A stretch of DNA of 64,000 bases from Pseudomonadota bacterium (GCA_018240865.1 JAFEEY010000042.1:14545-78544), one strand, 5' to 3'. Shown: positions 8,626 to 58,326, counted from the stretch's first letter. Translations and numbers: made by a program. Notes: generated by a model not told the origin, from the sequence alone.

Positions 8626-8628
8626 AGC

Positions 8629-22685: not shown

Positions 22686-24989
22686 CTAGATCCCCATGTC
22701 CATGCCGTCAGGCTCGCGGCCGGCGGAGAAATCCTGGCGTAGCTCGACGATCGTCTGATCCTCGACCCGCGGCGCGCTGTGATGGCTGCGACCGTCCTTT
22801 CGATCATCACGTTCTCGGGCCTGCGCTGCCTCCTGCTCTGCTGCCGCGCGCGCAGTCTGTGCGATGTCGGCCGCATGTTGACGGGGTGCCTGTCCGTCGC
22901 GGTCGGCGTTGTTTTCGTGAACCGCCTTGCTGGTCGATTCCTTCTCCGCATCGACCTCGGCAGACAGGATGCGCGCGGCCATTTCCTTCGCCACGTTGAC
23001 CGGCTCTACCACCTCCTGGATCACCTGGCCGGCACCATCACGCCCACCGGCTTCACCACCCCCTTCTCCGTCGAACACTTCCTCTCCGCGCTTCGATCGC
23101 ACCGGCTTCATGTCGGGGCGGGGCAGGAAGCCGTCCGCGACCTGGGGATAGTCCTTCCAGACGAGCTTGATCCGAGCGGCCGGGAAGCCGTCGGGGAACT
23201 TCACGAAGCCATGCATCGAGGGCAGGTTCGTGATGTCGTCGGCGATCACGAGCGGTTCGACCTGCTTGCGCGGAGTCAGCGTCGAGGCGTCGCGCGTGTT
23301 GTTGTAGCCGTAGCTGTAGGCCTCATCCATCTGGCGGACTTCGCGGTTGCCGATATAGCGGGCGCACTGCTCGGCGGTGTCGAGATCGGCGGTCGCGAGG
23401 ATGAGCTTGGAGCGGGCAAGCGAGGCGAGATTGCGGGCGCCCTGCTCGCCATAGACCTCGACCAGCTTTTCGAAGCTGTGGATGCCGAGGATCATTGCGC
23501 CGCCGAAGGCGCGGGCCGTCTGAAGGCCATTCTCGATCGCAGGCAGGCGGTGCAGCGCGCCGACCTCATCGAACATGAACCAGGTCCGCAAGCTGCGCGT
23601 GCGCGGCAGCGTCATGAGGCTGGTGATGGCGATGTTCATCCAGAGCGTCAGCAGCGGCCGGTTCATCTCCAGATCGTCGTAGTCGGAGGTGACGAACAGG
23701 ATCGATCCGGGCGCGCGCTCGGTGGTCATCCAGTGCCGGATCGAGAACGGCTCTCCTTCGTCGGGCAGGAAACGCAGGACCTGCGCATTGGTGTTGAAGA
23801 CGGCGCGGATCGATTCCGCCATGCGGGCCGCTTCCGGGGCGGTCAGCGGGTCGGCGATGGTGTTCGCGAGGAAGCGATGCACCCGCTTCAAATCGGCGGT
23901 CATCAGGTTCTCGGCGAGCGCCAGGTTGGTGGTCTGGCCGCGCTCCTGAAGCCGGACGCACATCTCGATGAACAGGGTGCGGGCCGCGAGCGCCCAGAAG
24001 GGCTCGGACGAGCCGCCATCGGAGGGAATGAGCGCCGCGGCGGCCGACGTGAAATGGCTGTAGGTCGAGCAGTCGTTGAAGATCGACCAGGCCGGGCAGC
24101 GCTGGTCCATCGGGTTCAGGATCGTGTCGCGCATGGGATCGTAGAAGGCTTCGACATAGGCGCCGGTGAGATCGAAGATCACGGCGCTGTCCTGGCGCTG
24201 GCGCATCTGGCTGACCAGACTCCTGAGCTCGGTGGTCTTGCCCGCGCCGGTGGTGCCGATCAGCATGGAATGGGACTGCTCGAGGCGGTGCGGATAGGGG
24301 ATGCCGGCGAGCGTATAGGGATGGTGGATGCCGCCCGCCTTCCGTGTCGCGAACGGCAATTTGAGCACGGCGGCGGACGAGCGGCCGGGGAAGAACTCGC
24401 GCGCGTCCTCCGCGAATTTTTCCGCATTGTGCTGCGCGATTTCGGAGACCAGCACGGCGCGATCGACCAGCATGGCGCCGCGCTCATGGCGTTCCTGAAG
24501 GATCGAACGCCCACGCCTGCGCGAGATGTCGACGAACCAGATGGTGAGTGGCGCGACCACGAAAACCGAGACGAGGATCGAGCCGATCAGCGCCCGGATG
24601 GTGGTCTCCCAGGCCTGCTGCACGGCCGGGATATAGGGCACCACGGGCATGACCGTTTTGTAGATCTCGCCATTGGGCAGGGTGACGTTGACGCGCTTGT
24701 TGGGATTGAGGTCGACCCAGTTCCAGAGCGCCGAATAGATCTTCATGCAGACGAGCTGGAATCCGTGCTCGTCGAGGCGGATCGAGAGGATGACGAACCA
24801 GGCCGCGAGGAAGGCGAAGAACCAGACCATGATGGGCAGCCGCGCGCCCGAAAACCACATCAGCATCTCGTGGGTGAGAAGCTGGCTTCCGCGCGTGAAA
24901 TTGCCGGCGTTGCGATGGACTTTGCCCCGCGCCGAATGATGGGTCAGGGGTATGGCGCGGCCATCGGTGCGGATGTCCTTACGCGCCAT
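22686..24989 (-). CDS. Type IV coupling protein (TrwB/TraD/VirD4 family)
   Basis: N-terminal TM segments, Walker A (GTTGAGKTT), position upstream of the relaxase. ATG 24989 was chosen; the ORF-track extension to 25388 overlaps the RHH gene. Confidence 0.9.
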   Translation of the reverse strand: MARKDIRTDGRAIPLTHHSARGKVHRNAGNFTRGSQLLTHEMLMWFSGARLPIMVWFFAFLAAWFVILSIRLDEHGFQLVCMKIYSALWNWVDLNPNKRVNVTLPNGEIYKTVMPVVPYIPAVQQAWETTIRALIGSILVSVFVVAPLTIWFVDISRRRGRSILQERHERGAMLVDRAVLVSEIAQHNAEKFAEDAREFFPGRSSAAVLKLPFATRKAGGIHHPYTLAGIPYPHRLEQSHSMLIGTTGAGKTTELRSLVSQMRQRQDSAVIFDLTGAYVEAFYDPMRDTILNPMDQRCPAWSIFNDCSTYSHFTSAAAALIPSDGGSSEPFWALAARTLFIEMCVRLQERGQTTNLALAENLMTADLKRVHRFLANTIADPLTAPEAARMAESIRAVFNTNAQVLRFLPDEGEPFSIRHWMTTERAPGSILFVTSDYDDLEMNRPLLTLWMNIAITSLMTLPRTRSLRTWFMFDEVGALHRLPAIENGLQTARAFGGAMILGIHSFEKLVEVYGEQGARNLASLARSKLILATADLDTAEQCARYIGNREVRQMDEAYSYGYNNTRDASTLTPRKQVEPLVIADDITNLPSMHGFVKFPDGFPAARIKLVWKDYPQVADGFLPRPDMKPVRSKRGEEVFDGEGGGEAGGRDGAGQVIQEVVEPVNVAKEMAARILSAEVDAEKESTSKAVHENNADRDGQAPRQHAADIAQTARAAAEQEAAQARERDDRKDGRSHHSAPRVEDQTIVELRQDFSAGREPDGMDMGI

Positions 24990-25269
24990 GGTATTGCTCC
25001 AGGCGCTTGTCCGCATTGGCGATGATCCGCTCGCGGAATTCGGGATATTGCTCGCTGATGATGACGTCGAGCGCGAGCTGCATGAACTCGCTGATCCGCG
25101 CCAATCGGCGGTGGCTGGACGTGATGACGCTCGCCGTGCCGAGATAGGCATCGACTGCCGCCCGGATGATCTCGGAGGGCTTGCATTCCTGGTCCGTCGC
25201 GAGGGCCAGAATGCGATCATACTGCTGGCGGTCGAGCCGGACCGTGCAGTGCCGTGTCGTCGAGGACAA
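24979..25269 (-). CDS. Ribbon-helix-helix relaxosome accessory protein (TrwA/MobC-like position)
   Basis: RHCTVRLDRQQYDRILALA...PSEIIRAAVDAYL is an RHH pattern. The TTG start lies 5 nt after an AGGAGG SD. First gene of the RHH-T4CP-relaxase operon. Confidence 0.6.
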   Translation of the reverse strand: MSSTTRHCTVRLDRQQYDRILALATDQECKPSEIIRAAVDAYLGTASVITSSHRRLARISEFMQLALDVIISEQYPEFRERIIANADKRLEQYHGA

Positions 25270-25270
25270 A

Positions 25271-25294
25271 CCAGCCTCCTAGCAGAGAGGCTGG
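25271..25294 (-). promoter_or_regulatory. 8-bp stem hairpin that includes the SD of the RHH gene
   Basis: ccagcctc / gaggctgg with an 8-nt loop. On the mRNA strand the 3' arm contains GGAGG. Confidence 0.35.
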
Positions 25295-25370
25295 TGGGGA
25301 CCTGAGAAAGCGTGTGGAGATATAACCGATCGCGCGGTGGGCGGCAAAGAGAAATGGGGAACACAGAGCG

Positions 25371-25450
25371 CGTGGCACCACGTGGCACGGCTAAGTCACT
25401 GAAAGCTTGGGATAAACAGACTCCCTCGCGAACGTCCCACGCCGTGGCAC
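25371..25450. repeat. Three direct CGTGGCAC repeats (25371, 25381, 25443); the first pair creates a CCACGTGG palindrome
   Basis: Read directly. The first two are 10 bp apart, upstream of the Dtr operon where an oriT or operator is expected. Confidence 0.45.
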
Positions 25451-25928
25451 GCTCTCCGGTCGCCCTAAGCTATTGAGGGAACACGGGAATCCTGCACCTT
25501 CAGGTGCGTAGGGTGTGCTAATCCCAAGAGCCCGATCCCCTGTCCCTGGGCCTGTTACGATGTCGTCGGAGAGGAGCCGGTTGCCGGGACCGGCGAGGTA
25601 CGCGCCGCCGTGAGGCGGAACGCGCGAGGCCGGTGTCACCGATCCGATCAGGGCGCGAAAAGCCCCGATGCGCAGCATCAACGTCGGCCAAAGGGCCGCG
25701 TTGGAAAGGCGAGGATCGTGACCCGAAGGGCGGAGACAAGGCGCATGCCTTGGCTCCGTGAGGTTGGGCTCTCGTTGCCTGAAGGGCATCGGGAGCCCTA
25801 GCGAATAGAGCCGTCGTCGGGCGCAGGCCCGATGCGCCCAGCCCCATGAATCTTCTTCTTCCTGCCCTCACCAACCAGCGCTATGTTCAGCCAGTTCATA
25901 GCCCGATTAGCCTTCACAAGAGGCACCT

Positions 25929-34960: not shown

Positions 34961-34980
34961 CCCTCAAGATCCCCCTCCCC
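34961..34980 (-). repeat. CCCCCTCCCC box
   Basis: Exact core at 34971-34980, between the Mom-like stop and the PP-loop gene start. Confidence 0.5.
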
Positions 34981-35817
34981 TCATTCTCGGCCGGCTGTGC
35001 GGTTCTCGGCCTCGATGCGAAGATCGAACTGAAAGGTGGGGTGCGCCAACGGCAGGGCCTTTGGATAGGGAAGTCGCGGCAGTGCGCGGCCGTGCCGGCG
35101 GGCTTCGCGGGTGAGCTCGAAGCAATAGGCGTAGAGACCCGGCTGCTGATGGCGCACGAGATGGCGTTCGCGTTGCAGCCGCCAAAGCCATGTCGCAGGC
35201 ATCTCCCCGAACTCCGGCCTGGGCAGGCCAAGCGAAACGAGCTGATCGATGGCGCCGGCATGGCCTCGCTCGCCAAGGCGGATCTTCGAGAGCGTGCGCC
35301 CCGCGATCGTTGTGTCGCCGGCGCGCAGGACGGTTCGCGGCCTCGTAATGGCGCGGTGCGCCGCCGAGAGCGCGCAATAGACGCGGCCTATATGTCCGGC
35401 GCTTGGGTCGCTGTACGAAACCACGGCCTCGATTCCGGGCTTCTCGCGGCGCAGATGGCGAAAGGCCCGCGCGACGAAGAAGCTCTCCCCGTTCTGGGGC
35501 ACGGCGTCTGTCAGGATCAGGCGGGCGAGCACGCAGCCGCGTAGCGGATCGGCAAAGCCGGTGTGCCGCGTGATTACGGCTCCGGTGGCCGGAACGGCGA
35601 AGACGGCGACGCCTTCCAGGACTGCCCCGGCGCCATAGAGCCCGACCGCGAGCTGCGCCGCAGGATAGGTCGGCAGATAATGATGGCGGGCAATGAAAGC
35701 GCGCGCGGCATCGTGTCCGATGATCTCGACGGAATAGGATTTGGGATCGATGACCGTGAGATCGCGGGCCCAGAGCGCCCGGCGCTCGCGCCAGCGCTGG
35801 CTGCGGCTCGTTTCCAT
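34981..35817 (-). CDS. GNAT-fold protein resembling the phage Mu Mom-like family
   Basis: ARAFIARHHY...VGLY...GVAVF..P...NGESFFVARAFRHL...VVSYSDPSAGHIGRVY matches the pattern I associate with Mom-like acyltransferase-fold proteins. Not verified by HMM. Confidence 0.5.
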   Translation of the reverse strand: METSRSQRWRERRALWARDLTVIDPKSYSVEIIGHDAARAFIARHHYLPTYPAAQLAVGLYGAGAVLEGVAVFAVPATGAVITRHTGFADPLRGCVLARLILTDAVPQNGESFFVARAFRHLRREKPGIEAVVSYSDPSAGHIGRVYCALSAAHRAITRPRTVLRAGDTTIAGRTLSKIRLGERGHAGAIDQLVSLGLPRPEFGEMPATWLWRLQRERHLVRHQQPGLYAYCFELTREARRHGRALPRLPYPKALPLAHPTFQFDLRIEAENRTAGRE

Positions 35818-35835: not shown

Positions 35836-37119
35836 TTAGCGGGCGGCAAATCTCGTCGCCCCGCCGAACAGGCGGAGCGCGCGTGCCATCTCGTCGCGCA
35901 ACCGGGCCTTGCTGCCGACGATGAGCGTCGGCGCGAGGGGTTTCCCGCCGGGGTCGATGAAGCCGTGCGCGAGGGTGCCGTCCTGTTCGATCGAGACGAG
36001 ATGCCCCTTGCCGGGCGCCGGCCCCTGATAGCGCGCCGTCAGCTCGCCTAGCTTCGCAGTCAGGCCCTTGGTCGCCTTGGACCAACGGATGTGGCCAGCG
36101 CCGACATTGCTCCCGGCCTCGCGGCCTCGATCCATCCAGAGTTTCGCGTGCGCCTTGACCTGCAGCGGCGTGTTGCGCGTGCGTTCGCGATTCCGACAGG
36201 TTGGCAATGCGGCCGAATGGGTATCGAGAACCCGCAGATATTCGCCGTGCAGCGCGACAAGGATATCCTCGATGTCGATGCCGGCGAGGAGCGCGCGAAG
36301 CCGGTCCTCCTGCTCGGGACTGGCAATGAGCTCGTCGGCCCGCTCCGCCGTCAGTTCCTCGGCCTCGGGCTGCGCGGTCACACCGGATATGAAGCCCTTG
36401 GTGGCGGTGAGAATGATGGCGTGACCGCCGCAGCGGCCGCCTGTCTTACGATAGCGCTCCAAAATATCGCCTCGGCCGAGCGCCGCCGCCGGATGATCGC
36501 CCAGGATGATAACCCGCCGCGACCATGGTGTCGGTCGGGGCCGGTCGCTGGGTTTCGGCCAGTCCGAGGGTAGCGATCGCACCGCACCCCGCGACTGCAT
36601 CGAGATGGGCGCTCGTTCGGCAGCGCGATTGGCCCGGCGCGCCGCGTCGAAGAGATCATCAACGTCGCCGCCGCCGTCGGCGAACCCGCAGTCATAGGCC
36701 GGGCGTTCTGCGGCCTTGGACGGCGAACAATGGTTCCAACCTACATGGGCCGCGTACCAGCCATCGGCATAGCGGATCGCGAGATTCCAGTCATAACCAT
36801 AACGATCGCGTCCACGCAGGATCGCCGCATCGCGCTCATCACCGCGTCCTGAGACGGCGCGCTCCTCGGTGAAGCTGAAATTGCGCGCCTGGCGCTCGGC
36901 CTCGCTATGCGCGGCAATCGCGTCGTTGACGGGCTTCATCGCCTGGACGCGCGCGCGGGTGCGCGCCATGCGATCTTCAGGTGAAGCCGTCGGCGCCAGG
37001 TCCGGAAAGTCGCGCCAGGCTTTCGCGATCGCTTCGGCATGTTCCGGTGCGCGGCCCCGGGCCAGCCAGGTGGCAGTCGAACAGGGGTCGAACTGCGGGA
37101 TTTTTTCGACATGGATCAT
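35836..37119 (-). CDS. Hypothetical protein (427 aa)
   Basis: Long coding-like ORF in the array. ATG verified. Confidence 0.55.
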   Translation of the reverse strand: MIHVEKIPQFDPCSTATWLARGRAPEHAEAIAKAWRDFPDLAPTASPEDRMARTRARVQAMKPVNDAIAAHSEAERQARNFSFTEERAVSGRGDERDAAILRGRDRYGYDWNLAIRYADGWYAAHVGWNHCSPSKAAERPAYDCGFADGGGDVDDLFDAARRANRAAERAPISMQSRGAVRSLPSDWPKPSDRPRPTPWSRRVIILGDHPAAALGRGDILERYRKTGGRCGGHAIILTATKGFISGVTAQPEAEELTAERADELIASPEQEDRLRALLAGIDIEDILVALHGEYLRVLDTHSAALPTCRNRERTRNTPLQVKAHAKLWMDRGREAGSNVGAGHIRWSKATKGLTAKLGELTARYQGPAPGKGHLVSIEQDGTLAHGFIDPGGKPLAPTLIVGSKARLRDEMARALRLFGGATRFAAR

Positions 37120-37139
37120 GTGGTCGGCCTCGGTCGAGA

Positions 37140-37784
37140 TCAGGCGAAGAGGCGCATCGGCTGTTCGACCGGCGGCGTGAGACGAAGGTCGCGCCGCAGA
37201 CGGTCGGCGAAACGGTCGGGCGCCATGAGATCATTGACCGATGCCCAGTGATTGCGCGCGCCGCAGTGATCATCGCGGCCACGAACCCGGCGATAGAGGA
37301 CTTCCCGGCCCGGGCCCGAACAGCCAAGCGAGAGCTGCACCCATGCTTCCTCGCCATGGAGCGTGATTTCGCCGGAAACCGCAGGGCCGCCCTTGCTGGA
37401 GCGGATGTCATAGGTTCCGTCGCATAGGCCCAGCGCGTCGGCGAGGCGCCGCATTGCGGTGCGGCCCTCCGAATGGAAGAGCCGCTTGGCGGCCTCGTCA
37501 TGGCTCACGCCCCGATAGGCGAGGTTGCGCAGGACCGGCGTTCGGCGGATTTCGGCGATCTGGTCCATGCAGGTGCGCCGAAGCTCGAGATTGGACGGAC
37601 GATCTTCGCACACTGCGCTGAGGTGGCGAACGAGCAGGATCACGGCGGGATCGGTTTCGGCGTCTTTGCCGGCGTTGCGGCAATCCTTGATCGCGGCTCC
37701 GATCGCGTGGAGGGTGGTGCCGACGGTGATCAGCGCGCTGGGGTCGAGCGCCTGCTGGTGGCGCATGGCGACGTCGTAAGTCAT
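37140..37784 (-). CDS. Hypothetical protein (214 aa)
   Basis: GGAGGG SD 8 nt upstream of the ATG. Confidence 0.55.
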   Translation of the reverse strand: MTYDVAMRHQQALDPSALITVGTTLHAIGAAIKDCRNAGKDAETDPAVILLVRHLSAVCEDRPSNLELRRTCMDQIAEIRRTPVLRNLAYRGVSHDEAAKRLFHSEGRTAMRRLADALGLCDGTYDIRSSKGGPAVSGEITLHGEEAWVQLSLGCSGPGREVLYRRVRGRDDHCGARNHWASVNDLMAPDRFADRLRRDLRLTPPVEQPMRLFA

Positions 37785-37825
37785 GGGATGGCCCTCCGGT
37801 CTTGAGCGAAAATCCGCTCAAACGG

Positions 37826-37849
37826 CCCTCTCCCCCTCCCCTTTCTCCC
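37826..37849 (-). repeat. CCCCCTCCCC box; the minus strand reads GGGAGAAAGGGGAGGGGGAGAGGG
   Basis: Exact core at 37832-37841. Four G-runs of 3 or more. Confidence 0.5.
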
Positions 37850-37877
37850 GTGGCCGGCCTCGGGCTCGACCGAAGAT

Positions 37878-38636
37878 TCAAGCAGCGATCGGTAGCGGGA
37901 TCGGCACGGCCTGCCCGGTGGCGATATTGATGAACGCGCCCGCGTGGCCGATCGATCCGCGGCCAACGAGATCGAAGAGAAGGGCCAGCGCGTGGCTCGC
38001 CACCACCCGGTTCACGAAAAGCGACTGGCGCTCGAGGGCTTCGGCCATCGAGCACGACGGCGCGTCGTCGTCAGGCAGGCTCTCGTTCGCGACCTCGGGG
38101 AAATATTCGAGGACTGTCGGGAGGATCTGGTGCCCGGCCTCGGGCTCAGCGTTCGGGCAACCGATGATATATTGCCCGTCGCCAGCGCGGTTGCCGAGAT
38201 CCAGCCAATAGGCCGGCGCATTCCTGGCCGAGGCGATGGCCGCACCGACGCTCCGGCGCGCCGATGCGGTATCGACACAAGTGATGACGATGTCGGTGCC
38301 GTCGAGCTTCGCGGCCTCGGGTGCCCGGCCATGCACCGCCGTCCAGGCCAGACCGTGGGCGAGATTGATCCGCTCGGTTAACGTCCGGGCCTTCGAGTTG
38401 CCGATGTCGCACCTGAAGAAGGGCTGCCGGCCAAGATTGGCCTCGCTGACGATATCGTCGTCGACGACGGTTACATCGAGCGAACGCGACGAAATCGCCC
38501 GCAGCGCCGTATCCAGCGAGGCGAGCCCCATCAGCATCTGCGCGCCGTTGCCGCCGCATCCCACAAGCACGATTTTGATCGCGCGGTTGCCGAGCGCCGC
38601 AGGCAGATAGTGGCGAAGGGGCGTCTCAGAGGTCAT
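37878..38636 (-). CDS. PRTRC-system ThiF-family E1-like protein
   Basis: Rossmann motif (VLVGCGGNGAQ). ATGA overlap with the JAB gene. Cassette context. Confidence 0.85.
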   Translation of the reverse strand: MTSETPLRHYLPAALGNRAIKIVLVGCGGNGAQMLMGLASLDTALRAISSRSLDVTVVDDDIVSEANLGRQPFFRCDIGNSKARTLTERINLAHGLAWTAVHGRAPEAAKLDGTDIVITCVDTASARRSVGAAIASARNAPAYWLDLGNRAGDGQYIIGCPNAEPEAGHQILPTVLEYFPEVANESLPDDDAPSCSMAEALERQSLFVNRVVASHALALLFDLVGRGSIGHAGAFINIATGQAVPIPLPIAA

Positions 38637-39286
38637 GATCGTCTCCTGAAAAAAGGGCTTCGCGGCAGCGGGAGGAACATCCCTCCGGCGCACAGTCGCG
38701 AGGCAAATGCGGGGCCGTCCGTATGACCCAGACGTCCGACAACCAGGGCGATCTTGGTCGCGTGCGCGTCGTCCGCGTCGTCGGTTGCGCTGAAGAAGGC
38801 CGCGCCGTGCCCATGGCTGTGAATGTCGCAGATGAGGTGATGGTGCGGCGGCAGCGCAGGCGGACGATAAGTGAGGTGTGACGGCGTCGCGCGGTCGATC
38901 TGGGGGAAGTCGACCCAGAATCGCCGATTAGCCTCATCCCAGAGGATGAAGGCGGCGGCCTCGTTGGGCAGCGCGGCGCGAAAGTGCTCGAGGACTTGCC
39001 GCAGCAGCTCCGCCGGTATCAAGCCGCAACGCAGGTCCGCGCGGCGAACTCCAATGCTCCCGTAGGGCAGGTAGGCCGGGATCGGCGGTGTCACGGGCAG
39101 ATCCAGAGCCAGCCAGGCCCGGCGCAAGATCAGGCAGACACCATCGCGGCCGATTGCGAGGCAGCTGCCTGCTCGGGCTTCGCGAACGGCCTCGATCGCG
39201 GGTGATCGCCCATCCGGCGGCACGGGATAGCAAGGCGCCTCCGCCAGTACCGCGGCGGCGGTCGGGTCTTCGGCGAGGGCAGTCAT
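38633..39286 (-). CDS. JAB/MPN metalloisopeptidase (PRTRC protein A position)
   Basis: Complete JAMM motif HSHGHGAAFFSATD (HxHx7Sx2D). Confidence 0.8.
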   Translation of the reverse strand: MTALAEDPTAAAVLAEAPCYPVPPDGRSPAIEAVREARAGSCLAIGRDGVCLILRRAWLALDLPVTPPIPAYLPYGSIGVRRADLRCGLIPAELLRQVLEHFRAALPNEAAAFILWDEANRRFWVDFPQIDRATPSHLTYRPPALPPHHHLICDIHSHGHGAAFFSATDDADDAHATKIALVVGRLGHTDGPAFASRLCAGGMFLPLPRSPFFRRRS

Positions 39287-40113
39287 CGGCCGGACCTTCC
39301 GTAGATGAGGTCGCCGAGCGTCACTGGGTCGGCCTTGGCGGCGCCTCGCGGGGCGGTCTGGCGACGATCTCCGAGGAACGGCCTCAAGCGTTTGACCGGG
39401 AAGCGGGTCGCGCGGGTCGCTGCGAGGGTGTCCCAGAGACGCACGAGACCGCCCTTCCCCGTGATCGTCAGCTCCTGACCCGGATTCGGATGGGTCGACC
39501 AGGAGTCGAAAAGCGCGCGCTCGAACTCGGGAATGGCGGACACATCCAGCGATGTCGGCTTCGGAATGTTACCCCAGCAGAGGGAACCGTTGAGGAAGAC
39601 GTTGAGGATCGGCGAATGAAGCAAGGCGGTTTCGGCCGCGGGCCGCTCGTTCCGCTCAAGCGCAAAGACTCCAAGCCGGCGCCGTGTGGCGACAAGGACG
39701 TGTGCCGGATAGGCAACCGGGACGATCGCGCGGCCGCCAAGCGCACGCAGTCCAGCCAGTTTCGCCGAGAGGTCGAAATAGGCCGTCCTCACCTGTGCGG
39801 GCACCCACCAGACCAGCAGGTCGGGATGGGCGACAAGCACCGTTTCGGGGAGAATTTGCGGCGGGGCGACGCGGCCGAGCGCCTGCGACCAATGCCGCAG
39901 ATGCGCCCGGGTCAAAGGCGTTCCAGCGGCGATGGTCGGCGCGCCGATAGCGTCGTGCTCGATCTGATGGATGCTGGCGAATGCCTCGGCATCTTCGCCA
40001 GGGGTAAGATGCGAGCCGAGGCCGCGAGCCCCGTCGCTTCTGTAGAGCAGGATGGCGTTGGTCAGCATCATGCCGCCTGCGGTTCGCTCGAACTGCACGC
40101 AATGGTCAGTCAT
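39283..40113 (-). CDS. PRTRC protein B position, E2/UBC-like candidate
   Basis: Cassette order. Conserved-looking Cys in NGSLCWGN. ATG 40113 lies 10 nt after the upstream stop. Confidence 0.55.
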   Translation of the reverse strand: MTDHCVQFERTAGGMMLTNAILLYRSDGARGLGSHLTPGEDAEAFASIHQIEHDAIGAPTIAAGTPLTRAHLRHWSQALGRVAPPQILPETVLVAHPDLLVWWVPAQVRTAYFDLSAKLAGLRALGGRAIVPVAYPAHVLVATRRRLGVFALERNERPAAETALLHSPILNVFLNGSLCWGNIPKPTSLDVSAIPEFERALFDSWSTHPNPGQELTITGKGGLVRLWDTLAATRATRFPVKRLRPFLGDRRQTAPRGAAKADPVTLGDLIYGRSGR

Positions 40114-40123
40114 GTCGGCCTCG

Positions 40124-41212
40124 TTATTCGGGAGGATAGAGTTCGATGAGATGTTTGGCGGCCCGCAGCAGCCGCGCGCCGGCGGCGAGTGACGCATGCC
40201 AGACATCGATCGCGGTGGAGTGCGTCATTGGGCAAAGGCCCGTCACGTCCATGAAACCATATTCCATGCCGTGACGCCCGACGTCGTCGACCTCGACCGC
40301 GAACTGTTCGACGGGAACGAGTGTCAGCGGCGGAAGCGGCGAACATTCCTCGATACCGGGGACATATTCGTAGAGAACATCCATCTCGAGGCGCCAGGCG
40401 TGATGTTCGTCAGGCAAATTGGTGAGCGCCGCGTGGGCATCCCGCAATTCGCGCAGAGCCCGACGAAGGGCAGTCGGTAACTTCGACGTGGGCGCTGCCC
40501 TCGCGGCGAGCATCCATTCTGGCCGCCTGGCGTTCATTTCGGACGGCATGGTCTGGGCCGCGATCTCGCTGTCGTCAGCCCCATGGAGCGCAACGAGGGC
40601 CTCGCGCGCAGCGGCGTCCTCGGTCTCGCCGTCCCAATAGTACATCGAGATGTTGTCGAAGAGGTCATCGTAGCAGAAGATCGGGAGAGCACTTCCGAGC
40701 GTGCGCTCGAGCACCCGATACGCAGCCGCGCGCCACGGGATCGGCCGCTTGCTGTCCTCGATCCATCCGAGATCGAGCTGCCCGACACTGTCGCAGACGA
40801 TCGCGACCGCCGGCGCCCCGCAGGATTCGCCGTTGAGCACGACGACGCGCAGGTCCGCGATCGTGCAGCTCCGCAAGCTTTCGAGGACCTCGGTCTGGAA
40901 GACCCGTTCGATATGTCGGCGCGCCTCAGGGCGCGTGCGGTGCACTGTCTCCTGCTCTTTCGAGGCGACCCAACTGCCGACGAGCTTATGGTGGGCCGCC
41001 AAAGGTCGATCGAACATCACCGGAATATCAGGGGAGATATGGACGGTCCGTCCTGCCAGATCAGCCGAGCGGAGGAAGGGAGAGTCCTGTGGGTGGCGGG
41101 ATAGGATCGGCAGGACCATCCTCGCGCGTGCCCGCGTCGAGGATGATCTTCGCATGGAGGGCCTGGGCTTGTTTGCTGCAGGCAGGCCGGGAGAGTTCGG
41201 AAGTGTTGCCAT
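40124..41212 (-). CDS. PRTRC protein F position (unknown function); start 41212 or 41119
   Basis: Cassette order only. Confidence 0.5.
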   Translation of the reverse strand: MATLPNSPGLPAANKPRPSMRRSSSTRARARMVLPILSRHPQDSPFLRSADLAGRTVHISPDIPVMFDRPLAAHHKLVGSWVASKEQETVHRTRPEARRHIERVFQTEVLESLRSCTIADLRVVVLNGESCGAPAVAIVCDSVGQLDLGWIEDSKRPIPWRAAAYRVLERTLGSALPIFCYDDLFDNISMYYWDGETEDAAAREALVALHGADDSEIAAQTMPSEMNARRPEWMLAARAAPTSKLPTALRRALRELRDAHAALTNLPDEHHAWRLEMDVLYEYVPGIEECSPLPPLTLVPVEQFAVEVDDVGRHGMEYGFMDVTGLCPMTHSTAIDVWHASLAAGARLLRAAKHLIELYPPE

Positions 41213-41286
41213 GGTCGTTCTCGATCCAATGGAGCAGCGTGCAGCGCGGTGCGGCGGGGATGGCCGCCATTTGAACGCGCGCCATG

Positions 41287-41493
41287 TCAGCCCTTGGTGC
41301 CGACAGCTCGGCGATATTCGGTGACGTGGACACCGCCAGTAACCCCGGCATCGACCAGGTCGGCATTGAGGATCGCCGGGTAGAGGGTGGCGTGGTAGGC
41401 GCGCAGCCCCTGCGGGTCATTGGCAAGGTGCGGCGGCTGCGGGAGGTCGATACCGTCATAGCGGTAGACGCGGGCAAGATGGTCGATCTGCAT
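41287..41493 (-). CDS. Small ubiquitin-like candidate (PRTRC protein C position), 68 aa ending in Gly
   Basis: Size, position next to E1/E2/JAB genes, and C-terminus ...AVGTKG immediately before the stop. Confidence 0.6.
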   Translation of the reverse strand: MQIDHLARVYRYDGIDLPQPPHLANDPQGLRAYHATLYPAILNADLVDAGVTGGVHVTEYRRAVGTKG

Positions 41494-41538
41494 CGGAATG
41501 TCCTTGTTGGAATTGCAAAGGGTGTCGGTTGCTTCCGA

Positions 41539-41970
41539 TCACCAGAGGCTGGCGGGCTCCTCCGATTTTGCATCGGCCGGCAGGGCGCCCGCCGCTGGCG
41601 CGGCCGGCGTGCTCGCTGCGACTACCGGCTTGGCGGGTGCCGATGCCGCCTTTGCCTTCGCCGCCTCCGCAGACGCCGCGCGCGCGGCCTCGGCCGCGTC
41701 CCGCTGGGTCGCGATCTGATCGGCAAGCGCCATGCGTGTGGCAATCAGCCCACCGAGCGCCCCCTCGGCGCCCTTCGCAAGCTCTGCATCGATCTCGGCG
41801 GCCGTCGCTGTGATCGAGATCGGACGCAGCTCGCCGGCCTCGGCCTTGTGCGTTTTGCCTTCGGCGACGCGGGGAATGATGATGAGGGTAACGACACCGT
41901 CATCGCCGGCGACAAGATCGAAGGCGAGCGAATAGTTGCCCAGCATGGGCAGAAGATTGGTGATCAGCAT
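41539..41970 (-). CDS. PRTRC protein E position (Ala-rich C-terminal tail)
   Basis: Cassette order. AAGGAA SD. Confidence 0.5.
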   Translation of the reverse strand: MLITNLLPMLGNYSLAFDLVAGDDGVVTLIIIPRVAEGKTHKAEAGELRPISITATAAEIDAELAKGAEGALGGLIATRMALADQIATQRDAAEAARAASAEAAKAKAASAPAKPVVAASTPAAPAAGALPADAKSEEPASLW

Positions 41971-42003
41971 TGTGGGATTCCTTGATTGGAAAGTTGGGCG
42001 AGG

Positions 42004-43623
42004 TCAGGCGGCCAGTTCGGTGACAACCTCGTCGGCCTTGGCGGGCGGAAGCGAATTGGGCGGCGCATAGCGGCCATCGAGGGCCATCGCGCTTGGCACC
42101 CGGCCAGCCCAATCGAACCCGACAGCATTCAACATGCCGGAGATCAGGTCGCCCTTCTTGGCGCCGAGCAACTTTGCGAATGCCTTCTCGCCCATGTGCG
42201 CGACCAGGCCGCTCTCGGCGGCAATGAACTTGAGCTCGTCCTTCGTGTATCGTTCGAGAAAAGCGCGATCGACCTGCCAGACTGTCCGGATGTCGATGCC
42301 GAAGGCGCCGGCGAGATCGGCGACGTGCGCGAACGACTGGACGTCCCGGGCATATGCTGCCCCGATCGCAGCCAGCACCGTGGTGGCCTGAACTTCCGAT
42401 AGCTCGCGGATCTCTGCGATCTTTTCCTTGAAACCGCGATCGGGGAACGCGGCGTCGACCAGCAGTGCAGCGCGCGAGGTCAAAGTGCCTGACTTGATGT
42501 GCGAAAGCGTGCCGGTCAGCGCTGCCACGAGGATCGCCGCCTGGGCGTTCAAAGGATCGTCGGCCAGCCCGCGGGCGAGCGCCGTGCGCCATGTCGCCTC
42601 CCGCAGGTCGGTCGTGCGGCCTGCGATGGACTTTGCGGTAACACTGGGCCCGGTGCTGGTGGAAACCTTGCGCACGACGGTTCCGCGACCGACCAGAGGT
42701 GCTGAAGGCGCTGCGTCATCGGTCAGACCGCCGATCTCACCTCCGTCCTCGTTTTCGTCGCCATCGTCGGCGAGAGCGTCATCATCGCCGTCATCGTGTT
42801 CGATCGCTGCGGCGGCGTCCTCGGCCTCGGCGGCCGCCTCCGCATCACGGCGTGCAGCTTCGACCGCCTCGGTCTTTAGCTGGAAGCAGGTAGCGTTGGT
42901 GCAGTGGCCATCGTCGACATGGGTGTCGAACAGGGCGCGCTGCGTCCCTGAATTGAACGGACAGGTGGTGCATTCCGTTTTGTCGAACAGGGCATCGGCG
43001 AGGCGCTGCGTGACCTTCATGAGAAGATCGCGGGTCTTTGCGATGTCAAGGCCGGCCGCGATGATCGTCTCGAGCGCCTTGTCCTGCTTGTCGGCGGGAA
43101 CGGCGGCGAGCAATTCGGCGTGTCCGACCTTGATCCGGCGCTCGTCGAGCGCGGTTTTGACGGTCTCGGAAAGGTCGGCGAGCGCGAGCCGGCGGTCCAG
43201 CTTTGCGCGGGACCAGCCAAGCCGCCGTGCAGCTTCAGCCCGGTCGCCTTGGCACGCCGCGAGATAGCGAACGGCCGCGTCCGCCTGCTCGGTCTCGGAA
43301 GGATCATCGCGATCGTCGTTTTCGGCAATCGCCGCGTCGAGCGCCTCCTGGTCGGTCATCTCCCGGATCAGGACCGGCACCTCGGCGTTTTCGCCGAAGG
43401 CTTCCATTGCGGCCCGGTAGCGGCGACCGCCCGCGACGATCGTGAAATGCTCCGGCAGGTCGGCAGCGGGCCGAACCAGCATCGGCTGCAGCATGCCTCG
43501 CAAACGCAGGGAGGCGACGAGTTCGTCATGCTTCTTCCGGTCGAAATAGCGGCGCGGATTATAGCCCACGGCAATCCGGGCGAGCGGGACCATGGCGGTC
43601 CCGACAGGGTGCGATGCGGTCAA
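42004..43623 (-). CDS. PRTRC-system ParB-family protein
   Basis: ParB N-terminal domain (VPLARIAVGYNPRR...GMLQPMLVRP). TTG start 6 nt after an AGGAGA SD. Confidence 0.85.
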   Translation of the reverse strand: MTASHPVGTAMVPLARIAVGYNPRRYFDRKKHDELVASLRLRGMLQPMLVRPAADLPEHFTIVAGGRRYRAAMEAFGENAEVPVLIREMTDQEALDAAIAENDDRDDPSETEQADAAVRYLAACQGDRAEAARRLGWSRAKLDRRLALADLSETVKTALDERRIKVGHAELLAAVPADKQDKALETIIAAGLDIAKTRDLLMKVTQRLADALFDKTECTTCPFNSGTQRALFDTHVDDGHCTNATCFQLKTEAVEAARRDAEAAAEAEDAAAAIEHDDGDDDALADDGDENEDGGEIGGLTDDAAPSAPLVGRGTVVRKVSTSTGPSVTAKSIAGRTTDLREATWRTALARGLADDPLNAQAAILVAALTGTLSHIKSGTLTSRAALLVDAAFPDRGFKEKIAEIRELSEVQATTVLAAIGAAYARDVQSFAHVADLAGAFGIDIRTVWQVDRAFLERYTKDELKFIAAESGLVAHMGEKAFAKLLGAKKGDLISGMLNAVGFDWAGRVPSAMALDGRYAPPNSLPPAKADEVVTELAA

Positions 43624-43698
43624 GGCGGTTCTCCTAGTGAGAATGGCGGTGCACGCGCTTGCTCGCGACGCGCACCCTTTCGGTGAGCCTGATGCTCA

Positions 43699-43720
43699 CC
43701 CTTCCACTCCCCCTCCCCTT
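43699..43720 (-). repeat. CCCCCTCCCC box
   Basis: Exact core at 43709-43718, directly after the DpdA-like stop. Confidence 0.5.
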
Positions 43721-44734
43721 TCACCGCTCCGCCGTCTGGTCATGGAAGATGTCGGCCGCCCATTGCTCGAGCCACGGCTCGAACATCTCATCATGATCAA
43801 GATCGCCGGACTCGATGAGATCGCGGATTTGGGTACGGGCCTGCGCGATTGCGGCCTCCCAGGGATCGATCGGCGGAGGATCTGCGTCAGCAGGCCGTTG
43901 CTGCGGAAGGCGGCGCGGCCGCTCGGTTAGTCGGTGGTACTGACCGGCGAGCCATTGCTCCATGTAATCGGCCACGACGCGATCGGTCTTGGAGATCCCC
44001 GCCTTCAGGGCTGCCCGACGCGCACCGACGCCATAGGCCTGGCTGTCGATCGACGCGACCCGGTGTGCGAAAGGCAGAAGGAAGGGCAGTGCCGTGCCCT
44101 TGACGCCGAATGCGTGGAGCAGAACACCGGCCGGAAGAATCTGATCGAGATGGTCGATGACCGCGATCAGGCCTTCCGGTCCGTGAATATCGCGCCGGCA
44201 CATGCTTCCGACACCGATCAATGCGCCGGGGCGGAGCGAACCCCAGAGCGCATCGACACAGCGCTCATAGTCGGATGGTCGCCGGCCCTGGATCACAGGC
44301 ATCAGTCTGTCGGCTATTCCGGCATCCTCGCCCAGGATGCGGCAGTCGCGATTGGCGCGGATGGTGCGCGACAGGCGGTCGAAGACTTCGTCGCGATCTC
44401 GCGCGATCTCAGCCTCGACGCAGTAATCGGCACTTGCCCACCATTGGAATGGATAGGCCGCCGCGAGCGATACATAGTCCGACAGGGACCACGGGAAGCC
44501 ACCATAGCGCGCAGTCGCGACGAAGCCTGCGGAGTCCAGGCAGAGGCCGGACAAACCCCGTGCATTCTGGAGTTGCCCCAGGCGCCATCCGGTCCATTCC
44601 CGCCAGCCGCGCTTTTCGGACCAACGTGAAAGCGCGTTCGCCGAGATGAGCGCGGTCCGGCCAAGCGCGCGTGCCCGCTGAAGGATCGGCCCATCGTTCA
44701 GGTGCGGAAGGCCGACGATGACGTTGATGGGCAT
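43721..44734 (-). CDS. tRNA-guanine-transglycosylase-fold protein, DpdA-like
   Basis: CLDSAGF, ASADYC, PVIQG, IGVGSMCRR, LHAFGVKG and SIDSQAY occur in the order of the TGT/DpdA catalytic motifs. By eye only. Confidence 0.55.
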   Translation of the reverse strand: MPINVIVGLPHLNDGPILQRARALGRTALISANALSRWSEKRGWREWTGWRLGQLQNARGLSGLCLDSAGFVATARYGGFPWSLSDYVSLAAAYPFQWWASADYCVEAEIARDRDEVFDRLSRTIRANRDCRILGEDAGIADRLMPVIQGRRPSDYERCVDALWGSLRPGALIGVGSMCRRDIHGPEGLIAVIDHLDQILPAGVLLHAFGVKGTALPFLLPFAHRVASIDSQAYGVGARRAALKAGISKTDRVVADYMEQWLAGQYHRLTERPRRLPQQRPADADPPPIDPWEAAIAQARTQIRDLIESGDLDHDEMFEPWLEQWAADIFHDQTAER

Positions 44735-44771
44735 GATGCGCGCTCCGCTCGCAACGGAAGCACGCGGACAA

Positions 44772-44800
44772 TTGACGGTCGCGCATGTTCACGTTACGTT
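44772..44800 (+). promoter_or_regulatory. Possible sigma70-type promoter for 44822-45457
   Basis: TTGACG - 17 nt - TACGTT, about 20 nt upstream of the AGGAGA SD. Confidence 0.25.
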
Positions 44801-44821
44801 CTAATGAGTAGGAGATTTGCC

Positions 44822-45457
44822 ATGACGACGCCCAGCATCCGACACCTGTTCGATCTCGACATAACGCTGCGGGATGCGGCGCTGGATATGGAGAACCGGC
44901 CGACCCGTCGGATGATCGCCAATGCGGCGATCGGCATTCATGTCGAGGACGCCTACTATTCGGTGCGGGAGCTGCGCGAGGCGGTAAGCTGGGTGCATGA
45001 AGGGGTTTCGGCGGGCAAGCTGAAGCTGGCGGAGATCCTGGGCAATGATGGTGCCGACGATTTTCAGCGCTGCATCTATTTCTGCCTCGCCGGCCGCGGC
45101 GTGGTGTCGATGCTCGACGATCTTGAATGGCTGGAGGATCTGCTGGAGCGGCGCGGGCGCATCGCAGGCGAACAGAAGCGCCTGAAGGAGACGGTGATGC
45201 CGCTCGTGAACCCCTATGTGGCCGACGCGCCCGATGGGCCGTTGGTCAGGATGGACGGAAATTTCGAGCAGGGACCATCTTGGTGGCCGACCCGACTTTG
45301 TCGGCCTGACCATCAGCGCTCGCAGCTCAGGCGGTTCCCGTGCCGCCAGCGCGACGGTTCGATCCAGTCTCCGGCAAAGGCCCCTGCCCTTTGCCTCCTG
45401 GCCGAAGCGAAGGCCGCATTATATGCGCGCAGGCGAGCGGGATCGTCTCTGAGATAA
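44822..45457 (+). CDS. Hypothetical protein; its last ~48 codons overlap the convergent nuclease gene
   Basis: Good SD and ATG. The C-terminal tail is Arg-rich and junk-like. Confidence 0.4.
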   Translation: MTTPSIRHLFDLDITLRDAALDMENRPTRRMIANAAIGIHVEDAYYSVRELREAVSWVHEGVSAGKLKLAEILGNDGADDFQRCIYFCLAGRGVVSMLDDLEWLEDLLERRGRIAGEQKRLKETVMPLVNPYVADAPDGPLVRMDGNFEQGPSWWPTRLCRPDHQRSQLRRFPCRQRDGSIQSPAKAPALCLLAEAKAALYARRRAGSSLR

Positions 45458-46707: not shown

Positions 46708-47649
46708 TCAGGCCGCCTCGAGGATCTGCCTGACCCCCTCGGCCGATGACGCCGTGTCGTCGCTGTCGCCAAACGCCAGAAGGTAGTTGAAGGCCTGCTC
46801 AGCTTTCGAGGCGGCGTGAATGATTGCGGTCTTGTCCGCGCGCAAAATGCCGAGCCAGTGGGCGACGTAGCTCGCATGATTGTCGTGCAGTTCGTTCGGC
46901 AGATCCAAATGCGCGCAAATCAGGCCGCTTCCGATCTCAGCCACAAGCTCCTCGAAACTATAAGCTTTGTCGCCGAACCGCTTGCCGAAGGTCCGGGCAA
47001 GGCGCGAGCTGCCGCCTGACCAATGAACGGTCTCGTGTGCCCTCACCGAGGCGTAATGATCCATCGTTGTGAATGACCGCCGGTGCGGCATCTGGATGAA
47101 ATCAAATGTCGGGTGGAAGAAGGCGCGATCGCCGCCATGTCGAACATCTGCCGGCACATGATCGAAGAACTCGTCGATGGCAGCTTGCCGCGCAGATGGA
47201 TCGATCGGCGCAGGGGTCGCGTCGTCCGGATAGAAATAGGCGGGCAGCCCATCGATCTGATCGGCGTTGAACACGAGATAATGGCGAAGGAAACGAATGC
47301 TGCGTTCGCTCTCGGCACCGGTCACCCGGTCCGACTCGGTCTTTTTGAAGCTCGAATAATAGACCGAGAGCGAGCCGTGCTCCCCCCGGCGAACATGGCC
47401 GCCGAGCGCTTCGGCCTGGCGATACGTCATCCAGTAGCGCGAGCGATAGCCGTTCGCGTCTGCGATCGCCCAAAGATAGACCGTGTTGATCCCGGTATAG
47501 GGCGTGCCGCAGTGTCGGAGCGGACGGCCACCGGCGCCGGCAACCCGCCAGGGCCGAGTCCAGGGCGGGACGCCTTCTTCCAGCTTTCTGATGATGAGGT
47601 TGGTGATTTCGGCCGCGACGTCGCGGCTCGGACGGGCTTTCGCAGGCAT
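46708..47649 (-). CDS. ardC: ArdC-type antirestriction protein (ssDNA-binding N-domain plus zincin metallopeptidase)
   Basis: N-terminus (ITNLIIRKLEEGVPPWTRPW) and HETVHWSG (HExxH). Confidence 0.88.
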   Translation of the reverse strand: MPAKARPSRDVAAEITNLIIRKLEEGVPPWTRPWRVAGAGGRPLRHCGTPYTGINTVYLWAIADANGYRSRYWMTYRQAEALGGHVRRGEHGSLSVYYSSFKKTESDRVTGAESERSIRFLRHYLVFNADQIDGLPAYFYPDDATPAPIDPSARQAAIDEFFDHVPADVRHGGDRAFFHPTFDFIQMPHRRSFTTMDHYASVRAHETVHWSGGSSRLARTFGKRFGDKAYSFEELVAEIGSGLICAHLDLPNELHDNHASYVAHWLGILRADKTAIIHAASKAEQAFNYLLAFGDSDDTASSAEGVRQILEAA

Positions 47650-49897: not shown

Positions 49898-49922
49898 CCC
49901 CGTTCCCCCTTCCCTCTTTCCC
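49898..49922 (-). repeat. Variant box CCCCGTTCCCCCTTCCCTCTTTCCC
   Basis: The minus strand has four G-runs. Lies between the methylase-helicase stop and the ParB-like start. Confidence 0.45.
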
Positions 49923-54226: not shown

Positions 54227-54256
54227 CCCTCGATCCCCCTCCCCTCTCTCCGCCCC
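54227..54256 (-). repeat. CCCCCTCCCC box
   Basis: Exact core at 54235-54244, between the toprim gene stop and the methylase-helicase start. Confidence 0.5.
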
Positions 54257-55134: not shown

Positions 55135-55151
55135 CCCCCCTTCCCTCTTTC
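55135..55151 (-). repeat. Variant box CCCCCCTTCCCTCTTTC
   Basis: Between the initiator gene stop and the toprim gene start. Confidence 0.45.
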
Positions 55152-55270: not shown

Positions 55271-56575
55271 TCAATCGTCAGGCCGGTTCTTCCGCCGATC
55301 CGCATATTTGATCACGAAGGCCTCCCAGAGCCGCATCCATTCGGTGTCGGTCCGGGGCCTCTTGATATCGGCGAATCCCTTGCGGAATGCGTTGGCCATA
55401 TCGTCGACTGACCAAGGATGGCCCTTAGTGAGACCGACACTCCGAAACGCCTGTTCGCGGTCGCCATAGGAAAGCGTTCCCGGCGGGAATGCGTGAAGCG
55501 GTTCGTCTGATTTCGCTGCGGGTTTCGTTGCCTGCGGAACGGTGCGAACCGATGATCTCGGTGCCGTTTCGACGCCTGGCGCCCCAACAAGTCGCAAATG
55601 GGGTCCGACCAATTTACGCTCCATCGGCGCTGGAGACGGATGAAGGACCACCTTCCTGCCGGAGAGATCGACGTTCGCGTTGGGATAAACCGCCGAGACG
55701 AGCTGCATCGTCTCCCGCACCGTTTGACGAAAGCGCTTGCTGTCAGCCTCGTTGCCGAGGTGCTTTGCCAGTTGATCCCAAGAAATGATCTGCCCCTTGT
55801 CGGAGCCGATCCGTGGGAGGCGATAGGCAAGATAGGTATAGAGATCGAGCGCCGTTGGCGTCCCTTTAAGCTCCCGGATCGCTACTTCGTTTAATGGGAC
55901 AGCGTGCTCGATAAGGTGACTGTAGAAGACCTCCGACATACGGATTTCCCGCGCGAAGGTGCCGTTCTTGTCGAGTGAACCAGCATATTCATTTGAGATC
56001 TTCACATCGCGGACCGCAAAGGCGTTGTCGTCCGTTTCGGTGCCATCCCAGCGAATCTGCCACTCGCACGCCAGCAAGCGGTCGACCTGTTCGCGCATCA
56101 GATTTGCGGTGCCACGGGGGCCATAGGACACCGTTTGATAGCCAAGCCGCCGCATCCATTCCGTGAAGTTGCGGCCGAGATAGACGTCGCGCGAACGCTT
56201 CATTACCGCCTGTGAAAGCAGATAGATGAGCGCAACCCTGGGATAGGCCCCATATGGAACACCCAGGCTTCTCATGACCGACTTGCCATCGATATTTTGA
56301 AGAACCGGCCGAGGGTTGATTGCCAGCGCGTACTTGCCGTCTTCCCGGATAATCGGGAGCGTGTCGTCCTTCGGGCGCTTGGTCGGGAGCGACATGGCGC
56401 AAAGCGCGGAATGGAGAAATGCCGGGACAGGCTCTTCGTCGTGGACTCGCAGGAAGGCGTCGAGCGTCAATTGGGTTCCGGCAGTGGAGGCAAGCTTCCG
56501 GACATTCTCTGCACCGCCATCGATCATGGCGAGTGCATATTGGTGCCCAATCGGCCTATGCTGATCTCCGTTCAT
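55271..56575 (-). CDS. Replication initiator protein A family
   Basis: LCAMSLPTKRP segment typical of this family, and position next to the iteron/DnaA-box region. Confidence 0.7.
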   Translation of the reverse strand: MNGDQHRPIGHQYALAMIDGGAENVRKLASTAGTQLTLDAFLRVHDEEPVPAFLHSALCAMSLPTKRPKDDTLPIIREDGKYALAINPRPVLQNIDGKSVMRSLGVPYGAYPRVALIYLLSQAVMKRSRDVYLGRNFTEWMRRLGYQTVSYGPRGTANLMREQVDRLLACEWQIRWDGTETDDNAFAVRDVKISNEYAGSLDKNGTFAREIRMSEVFYSHLIEHAVPLNEVAIRELKGTPTALDLYTYLAYRLPRIGSDKGQIISWDQLAKHLGNEADSKRFRQTVRETMQLVSAVYPNANVDLSGRKVVLHPSPAPMERKLVGPHLRLVGAPGVETAPRSSVRTVPQATKPAAKSDEPLHAFPPGTLSYGDREQAFRSVGLTKGHPWSVDDMANAFRKGFADIKRPRTDTEWMRLWEAFVIKYADRRKNRPDD

Positions 56576-58320: not shown

Positions 58321-58326
58321 GCAGCA

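Follow-up and report, generated by a model that had tools for sequence, protein, structure and literature searches.

The PRTRC cassette is the fourth type of operon, in row 6d of their table, that Iyer, Burroughs and Aravind described (2006; PMC1779556); they characterise it by a ubiquitin-like protein (Ubl) that ends in Gly, a JAB peptidase with an N-terminal alpha + beta domain carrying Arg and Trp, a helical protein that diverges fast, and an E2-like protein whose conserved Cys has a His on its C-terminal side and which lacks the HPN His; the same authors proposed an addiction or protection role for it. Later work has identified other rows of the table with named systems, 6b with type II CBASS (an antiphage signalling system based on cyclic oligonucleotides), 6C with type II Bil and 6E with Bub, and type 6d appears to be a bacterial E1/E2/JAB/Ubl operon family that still awaits characterisation. 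We describe here a cassette of this type that occupies positions 37878-43623 of a 64,000-nucleotide stretch of DNA from a Pseudomonadota bacterium (GCA_018240865.1, JAFEEY010000042.1:14545-78544; the whole stretch is called the window below, and positions are counted from its first letter).

The cassette is already known and annotated. Positions 37000-45000 of the window match, at 99.9% identity, published sphingomonad conjugative plasmids, those of Rhizorhabdus dicambivorans, Sphingobium amiense, R. wittichii DC-6 and Novosphingobium capsulatum, whose genes the Prokaryotic Genome Annotation Pipeline (PGAP)/RefSeq already labels “PRTRC system”. Such cassettes have been catalogued since 2006-2008 and are present on hundreds of plasmids, including Pseudomonas resistance megaplasmids, on integrative and conjugative elements (ICEs) and in a few phages; in genome papers they are listed or taken for partition-like systems, and one preprint expands the acronym wrongly.

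Several known systems resemble the cassette in part. The anti-phage system BilABCD (types I and II, of which type II is 6C/CEHH) likewise has separate genes for Ubl, E2, JAB deubiquitinase (DUB) and E1, and has them in the same order; its chemistry is an E1-to-E2 thioester relay that delivers the Ubl onto lysines, with a DUB that both matures the Ubl and deconjugates it. However, the Bil E1 is a multidomain protein (IAD, AAD and a CYS insertion), whereas the E1 of the window is a single domain of 252 amino acids (aa), and Bil operons lie in defence islands and lack ParB, E and F. Type II CBASS Cap2/Cap3 (6b) and Bub (6E) also use bacterial E1/E2/JAB chemistry, and the ThiF protein of the window scores about 21 bits against Cap2-type models, but in Cap2 the E1 and E2 are fused and a CD-NTase is conjugated instead of a Ubl. 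The ThiS-ThiF and MoaD-MoeB sulphur-carrier pairs are like the cassette in that their adenylating E1 is compact and single-domain and has a loop Cys, and in that their carrier protein is small and ends in Gly; they have no E2 and a biosynthetic context, whereas the cassette has a conserved E2 and JAB and no cofactor genes nearby.

Composition of the cassette

The cassette consists of seven co-oriented genes, all on the minus strand in our list of open reading frames (ORFs). Read from the head of the cassette, they encode a PRTRC ParB-family protein (42004-43623; TIGR03734, Pfam ParB_N + HTH_ParB, PF02195 and PF17762), protein E (41539-41970; 143 aa, TIGR03741), protein C, which is the Ubl (41287-41493; 68 aa, PF14454 Prok_Ub), the protein in the F position between C and B (40124-41119 with the PGAP start, 331 aa; the ORF extends to 41212), the E2-like protein B (39283-40071; 262 aa, TIGR03737 and PF14460 Prok-E2_D), protein A, which carries a JAB-N/DUF2016 domain and a JAMM peptidase (38633-39286; 217 aa, TIGR03735, PF09436, PF14464), and a PRTRC ThiF-family E1 with one adenylation domain (37878-38636; 252 aa, TIGR03736). 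The ThiF and A genes, and likewise A and B, overlap by ATGA; the other spacers are 52, 167 (74 with the longest F ORF), 45 and 33 nucleotides (nt) long. The G+C content of 0.65-0.67 is the same as that of the surroundings, and a scan of this high-GC region for sigma-70 promoters and terminators gave nothing useful. The original prediction, made by reading the sequence alone, had described seven co-oriented genes chained by ATGA overlaps and short spacers, and this is the arrangement found; the features it had listed, namely a JAMM motif (HSHGHGAAFFSATD), a Rossmann GCGGNG, an SLCWGN, a 68-aa protein ending in Gly and a ParB N-domain, are all present.

Its naming of the parts and of the cassette type was checked with NCBIfam and Pfam hidden Markov models and is borne out by matches far beyond chance. 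ParB scores 405.1 bits against TIGR03734 (E 4.5e-121, cut-off 278.6), ThiF 264.6 bits against TIGR03736 (cut-off 144.75), protein A 151.4 bits against TIGR03735 (cut-off 101.8), protein B 159.4 bits against TIGR03737 (cut-off 131.45) and 105 bits against Prok-E2_D, and protein E 74.3 bits against TIGR03741 (cut-off 37.95), each above its TIGR cut-off. Protein C reaches 64 bits with Pfam Prok_Ub (cut-off 25) and 42.5 bits with TIGR03738, which is 3.5 bits under the cut-off of 45.95, and an identical protein is already named PRTRC protein C by PGAP. In gene set, gene order and carriage on a mobile element the cassette agrees with the PRTRC family (TIGR03734-03742) and type 6d; it differs from the family in this Ubl score and in having an F protein too diverged for the PRTRC_F cut-off. 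The cassette had been predicted to be “complete”, and it is so in the sense that all seven positions are filled, but not in the sense that every protein, F included, passes its family threshold. No PRTRC protein D, which TIGRFAMs also lists, was found here or in the other cassettes inspected. Scanning the cassette and the genes around it with PADLOC, PHROGs and NCBIfam assigned neither proteins A, B, C, E and F nor the hypothetical proteins on the flanks to a defence system or a further family. None of the PADLOC models fits A, B, C, E, F or ParB, and the E1 weakly matches the CBASS E1-E2 models at the score of about 21 bits given above. We regard the identity of the parts and the intactness of their active sites as practically certain, and the locus holds a PRTRC cassette of type 6d in intact form.

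The F-position protein, which is “hypothetical” in the PGAP annotation, is fast-evolving and mostly helical, and its family is tiny: of 1.84 billion proteins only 39 cluster representatives match. Positions conserved in the protein include W162, G164, D168, A171, P192-S193, P200, W202 and P263-P264. An hhalign comparison with canonical PRTRC_F (69% probability, E 4.4e-5, over the C-terminal 59 columns) weakly suggests that the two are homologous, as does the place of the gene between C and B; a profile search with distant F homologues again recovered only the close sphingomonad group. The AlphaFold2 (AF2) model of F is confident (predicted local distance difference test (pLDDT) 86.6, predicted TM-score (pTM) 0.82), and Foldseek finds no structural neighbour for it in PDB or BFVD. 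This model without a structural neighbour, the C-terminal tip of E and the purine-rich motif described below are the details that are new here.

In protein E a small N-terminal domain is joined by a linker rich in Ala, Pro and Lys to a conserved tip at the C-terminus, (D/E)EPA(S/T)L(W/F), encoded at 41539-41562 (tails tabulated over 73 loci and aligned with distant E proteins); the E protein of P. aeruginosa likewise has an aromatic last residue. The tip resembles a docking tail, as on the single-stranded DNA-binding protein (SSB). ParB is 539 aa long when read from a TTG at 43623, whereas the PGAP start is an ATG at 43593; an AGGAG lies 7-8 nt upstream of the TTG, which makes the TTG a sensible start. 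The protein comprises a ParB N-domain with GGRRYRA, a helix-turn-helix (HTH), an acidic linker and a family-specific C-terminal half. Unlike the ParB of ParABS systems it has no ParA next to it, the parA/parB pair of the plasmid being a separate one at 57118-59563.

Conserved residues and predicted pathway

The window proteins were aligned with homologues from Ralstonia phage Dina and from plasmids of P. aeruginosa, B. cepacia, Polaromonas and Deinococcus, which are 27-45% identical to them. In the E1, G26xG28G29xG31, D59, R70, K82, D122 and C195 are invariant in this distant alignment; the nearest solved relatives of this protein, UBA6 and E. coli ThiF, are distant (E about 2-4e-4). In the E2-like protein B, C165, P154, N157, G162, R143 and T193 are invariant among six distant members, SPILN stands where HPN would be, and T193-H194 follows C165 in five of the six sequences. 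E109, H156, H158, S166 and D169 of the JAB protein A are invariant, as are R56 and W58 of its JAB-N domain. The features by which type 6d was described are all found in the window proteins: the Gly of the Ubl, the Arg and Trp of the JAB protein together with a full JAMM motif, an E2-like Cys that has a His after it but no HPN His, and a helical protein that evolves fast. Sequence searches of the PDB found no relative of A, B, C or F among its chains.

The 68-aa Ubl terminates in ...VGTKG (G65-T-K67-G68), with the stop codon immediately after it. G65, K67 and G68 are invariant among the distant relatives, and 51 of 52 distinct sphingomonad copies end in GTKG-stop. In Dina, Polaromonas and Cupriavidus the Ubl extends past KG, and all three have the JAB gene; the Ubl of the Pseudomonas cassette that lacks a JAB gene has no such extension. 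This pattern fits a peptidase that matures the Ubl where this is needed and otherwise deconjugates it, the sample being small. The AF2 model of the Ubl (pLDDT 84) has the order beta-beta-alpha-beta-beta and a free C-terminal tail, and is consistent with a beta-grasp fold; the fold is not proven, since the Foldseek matches in PDB (SUMO, PB1 and Ubl proteins; TM about 0.45-0.51, E >1) were all non-significant.

These conserved residues, read in the light of what is known of the families, make protein conjugation the probable chemistry of the cassette. The compact ThiF-type E1 would bind ATP and adenylate Gly68 of the Ubl, which would then be joined to Cys195 of the E1 as a thioester and handed to Cys165 of the E2-like protein B. 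B would ligate the Ubl to a lysine of a target protein, F and E probably acting as specificity factor, adaptor or acceptor, and the JAMM peptidase A would take the Ubl off again, after first maturing the precursor in those cassettes whose Ubl has a C-terminal extension. The cassette's ParB, which has no ParA partner, may place the system on the DNA of the element.

Plasmid setting and distribution

The cassette is carried, in our reading as part of the backbone rather than the cargo, on a sphingomonad MOBF/MPF_F conjugative plasmid. A MobF relaxase (19632-22682) and a type IV coupling protein (T4CP; 22686-24980) are encoded on the minus strand, and after a gap of about 0.5 kb come genes for DUF2493, SSB, Phd/YefM, DUF736 and DUF3768 proteins; the relaxase operon ends near 25.4 kb and the co-oriented block starts at about 26.2 kb. 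Further along are a Mom-family gene (34981-35817, minus; PF25680, phrog_1384), two unknown genes and then the cassette. Immediately upstream of the cassette is a DpdA-like gene of the 7-deazaguanine DNA transglycosylase family (43721-44734, minus; PF23859), above it are a thermonuclease, DUF6927 and ArdC (46708-47649), and above ArdC are a 715-aa ParB, a strawberry-notch helicase, a Toprim protein and RepA (repA, 55271-56575). Between the relaxase operon and repA 35 genes are annotated, of which 31 lie on the minus strand, the strand of the cassette. The cassette had been placed by the prediction among anti-restriction genes, and ArdC, the Mom-family gene, the DpdA-like gene and SSB do lie in the same co-oriented block. 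The DpdA-like and Mom-family genes make two putative DNA-modification genes that flank the cassette on the same strand of a conjugative plasmid.

Anti-defence genes of plasmid leading regions are reported to be encoded on the transferred strand (T-strand) (Samuel and Burstein 2024, PMC11541004). If oriT lies upstream of the relaxase operon, by analogy with the R388-type trwABC arrangement, the plus strand would be transferred and would be the template for the block, so that the window would have the arrangement described by those authors, with the T-strand as template and with SSB, Phd/YefM, ArdC, Mom-family and DpdA-like genes. The likeness to their islands lies in a co-oriented block on the relaxase side that holds SSB, ArdC, toxin-antitoxin (TA) and DNA-modification genes; the main text of that paper, however, has no ThiF, JAB or ubiquitin, and PRTRC cassettes also occur outside such regions. 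The order relaxase-T4CP-gap-block and the strand bias make it plausible that the cassette is in the leading region. This part of the original prediction is reasonable as far as gene order and strand bias go, but no nic site was found, and a distance of about 12-18 kb separates the cassette from the presumed oriT, near which short inverted repeats were uninformative. Identity to R. dicambivorans plasmid NZ_CP023451.1 is 75.8% in the relaxase and 92.7% in the T4CP, and is 99.9% from 25480 onwards; the jump at 25116-25480, a mosaic junction at the position expected for oriT, hints that oriT lies in this gap. The same plasmid carries a 9.4-kb ars/integrase insertion at window position about 46940. 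In the more distant pSWIT01 (CP000700.1; about 62% identical) the order cassette, then DUF736, TA and SSB, is kept. The Ubl of pSWIT01 is unannotated in GenBank, and an intact 68-codon ORF ending in GTKG is present at 18578-18781 of the locus.

Eighty sphingomonad loci (L005-L084) were compared with the window; their flanks, which were compared with the window genes only, vary, with a DpdA-like neighbour in 13 of the 80 and a Mom-family gene in 21. The order E-C-F-B-A-ThiF is fixed in 73-80 of the 80 loci, and a ParB homologue adjoins the cassette in every one of the 73 loci that have a hit (73/80 overall). In all, 305 plasmids carry a homologue of B (131 of Pseudomonas, 32 of Burkholderia, 21 of Cupriavidus and the rest of other groups), as do four phage records. 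Of these plasmids 165 are typed as non-mobilizable, a typing that is doubtful because some of them carry mating-pair formation (MPF) genes, and that is perhaps unreliable for megaplasmids. In Cupriavidus the full set stands between an SNF2 helicase and a DUF932 gene, and in Pseudomonas megaplasmids (for example P. aeruginosa pPUV-13) the JAB gene is missing and the set comprises ParB, E and C, a gene in the F position, and B and ThiF. The locus of Deinococcus grandis pDEGR-2 has three B paralogues.

A purine-rich motif, GAAAGGGGAGGGGGA, stands at the head of the cassette (43705-43724, minus), directly after the stop of the upstream DpdA-like gene and ahead of a leader of about 80 nt that is rich in hairpins; the next copy (37828-37847, minus) marks the downstream edge of the cassette, between the ThiF stop codon and the following gene. 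Written on the coding strand as GAAAGRGGGRAGGGGGA, the motif occurs seven times in the window, exclusively on one strand, against an expectation of 0.59 (34970-34981, 37831-37842, 43708-43719, 49904-49915, 54234-54245, 55135-55146 and about 56726). Each of the seven is upstream of a minus-strand gene, and an additional copy is found inside mobF (20216-20227); among the seven are copies that stand 5-6 nt ahead of the starts of the 715-aa ParB and the helicase. The 80 related loci contain 147 copies on the cassette strand and 2 on the opposite strand, with a peak just upstream of ParB (36 of 68 related loci) and copies within the cassette in only two loci. In our reading GAAAGRGGGRAGGGGGA marks the heads of expression units, the block of backbone genes being co-regulated and the PRTRC cassette a single unit in it; the motif could be an extended Shine-Dalgarno sequence, a control site in the 5' untranslated region or a T-strand signal.

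Possible roles and other features of the window

The cassette is read as a single unit that has the presumed transferred strand as its template, and it shares its block with the genes for SSB, ArdC and the Mom-like and DpdA-like proteins; we therefore think a role in the service of the element the most likely one. From this context we tentatively suggest that it acts soon after entry (in establishment or counter-defence) rather than in host defence, while considering the chance that this is correct to be clearly the smaller one. The establishment hypothesis is slightly favoured by the backbone and co-regulation context and by the lack of matches to defence models, which do not single it out. 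The whole explanation, that is, a backbone PRTRC cassette with a tagging mechanism and an element-serving role, seems to us a good possibility that falls a little short of an even chance.

A number of observations weigh against it. The characterised bacterial E1/E2/JAB families (CBASS type II, Bil) defend the host and the remaining ones are predicted to do so. Our literature search found no paper that gives an experimental function for any PRTRC/6d cassette, and this, like the PDB searches, agrees with the earlier statement that the cassette has no established function. The F-position protein scores 19.7 bits against the curated PRTRC_F model TIGR03742, whose cut-off is 58.4, and the structural matches of the Ubl are the non-significant ones given above. 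A search for an R388-type nic site gave chance-level matches only, so “leading” is a term used here by analogy. The cassette is also found in quite other settings: in the temperate Ralstonia phage Dina, E, C, F, B, A and ThiF without ParB are beside a cI/cII-like switch; in Pseudomonas megaplasmids the cassettes are near the start of the record, many at the same coordinate, which is a non-leading setting; in B. cepacia NZ_CP023519.1, B-A-ThiF alone stands at the end of a type IV secretion system (T4SS)/pilus operon, with no Ubl within 20 kb; in a Polaromonas plasmid the core is beside repA/parAB; and some cassettes lack ParB. From this variety of settings (phage, megaplasmids, T4SS operon, rep/par) we conclude that the PRTRC cassette is a general backbone module of mobile elements and not a speciality of leading regions, and the step that had been taken from its location to an establishment or offensive role finds no support beyond this plasmid lineage.

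Other explanations have to be considered. The Ubl might reversibly modify the nucleoprotein complex of the element (PRTRC ParB, E, or replication and partition proteins) and so adjust copy number, segregation or whether the element transfers, in the resident host and not specifically at entry. Such a part in maintenance would suit the tight linkage of ParB to the cassette in sphingomonads, Pseudomonas and Cupriavidus, the neighbouring repA/parAB in Polaromonas, the many Pseudomonas megaplasmids with the cassette at the same coordinate near the record start, the Lys/Ala/Pro-rich linker of E, which could accept a Ubl, and the informal view of PRTRC as partition-related in genome papers; but ParB has no adjacent ParA, the plasmid has its separate parAB at 57118-59563, and a phage and a T4SS operon have the core but no ParB, and we think this explanation unlikely. 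A defensive function, in which the Ubl would be conjugated to proteins of invading phages or plasmids as in Bil or type II CBASS and would protect the carrier cell and the element, is distinctly unlikely in our estimation. The core order Ubl-(F)-E2-DUB-E1 is that of BilABCD, the known relatives are defensive or predicted to be, and the addiction or protection proposal of Iyer et al. points the same way; in Dina, moreover, the cassette follows, downstream and in the same orientation, an HTH gene of the switch region (a putative repressor), a position where exclusion genes expressed in the lysogen can sit. Against these stand the lack of any PADLOC model for A, B, C, E, F or ParB, flanks that consist of backbone genes and not of recognised defence systems in the window and in the annotated plasmid loci inspected, an E1 of one 252-aa domain where that of Bil has several, and a linkage to ParB that has no parallel in known defensive Ubl systems.

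It is very improbable that no protein is tagged at all and that the Ubl is a carrier of the ThiS/MoaD type (as a thiocarboxylate or other acyl-adenylate) that feeds the modification of DNA or of a small molecule, perhaps in connection with the DNA-modification genes nearby (DpdA-like and Mom-like). E. coli ThiF is indeed the closest solved relative of the E1 apart from the eukaryotic UBA6/UBA1, and the DpdA-like gene is immediately upstream and the Mom-family gene about 2 kb downstream of the cassette; but the JAMM peptidase and the E2-like protein, the latter with its invariant Cys, are kept throughout, there is no rhodanese domain and there are no thi or moa genes, and the two DNA-modification genes recur in only a minority of the related loci (13 and 21 of the 80).

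If the cassette does work for the element and not for the host, it would reverse the picture of bacterial Ubl systems as defensive and would add a new kind of establishment function. In its strongest form the proposal would be that PRTRC/6d is the first element-serving bacterial Ubl system, a ParB-tethered E1-E2-JAB-Ubl set whose expression goes along with that of the entry genes in plasmids, ICEs and some phages and which tags host proteins (of defence or the nucleoid) or proteins of the element, with F, a fold without known relative, as the specificity factor; we offer this as speculation that is more probably wrong than right by a wide measure. The window does not itself reveal the function, and what it provides is a clean, intact and well-delimited seven-gene unit on a tractable conjugative backbone.

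Some features of the window lie outside the cassette and its block. The only Rfam hit is a weak tRNA-like match at 62098-62174 (31.8 bits, gathering threshold 29), in which ARAGORN finds no tRNA; it is beside a site-specific integrase gene. Just upstream of repA are three 20-nt direct repeats with a spacing of 22-23 nt (56809-56873), which are probably iterons. A mutagenesis cassette of imuA, a Y-family polymerase and an error-prone DnaE2 is encoded at 8338-14322 and is about 77% identical in other sphingomonad plasmids.

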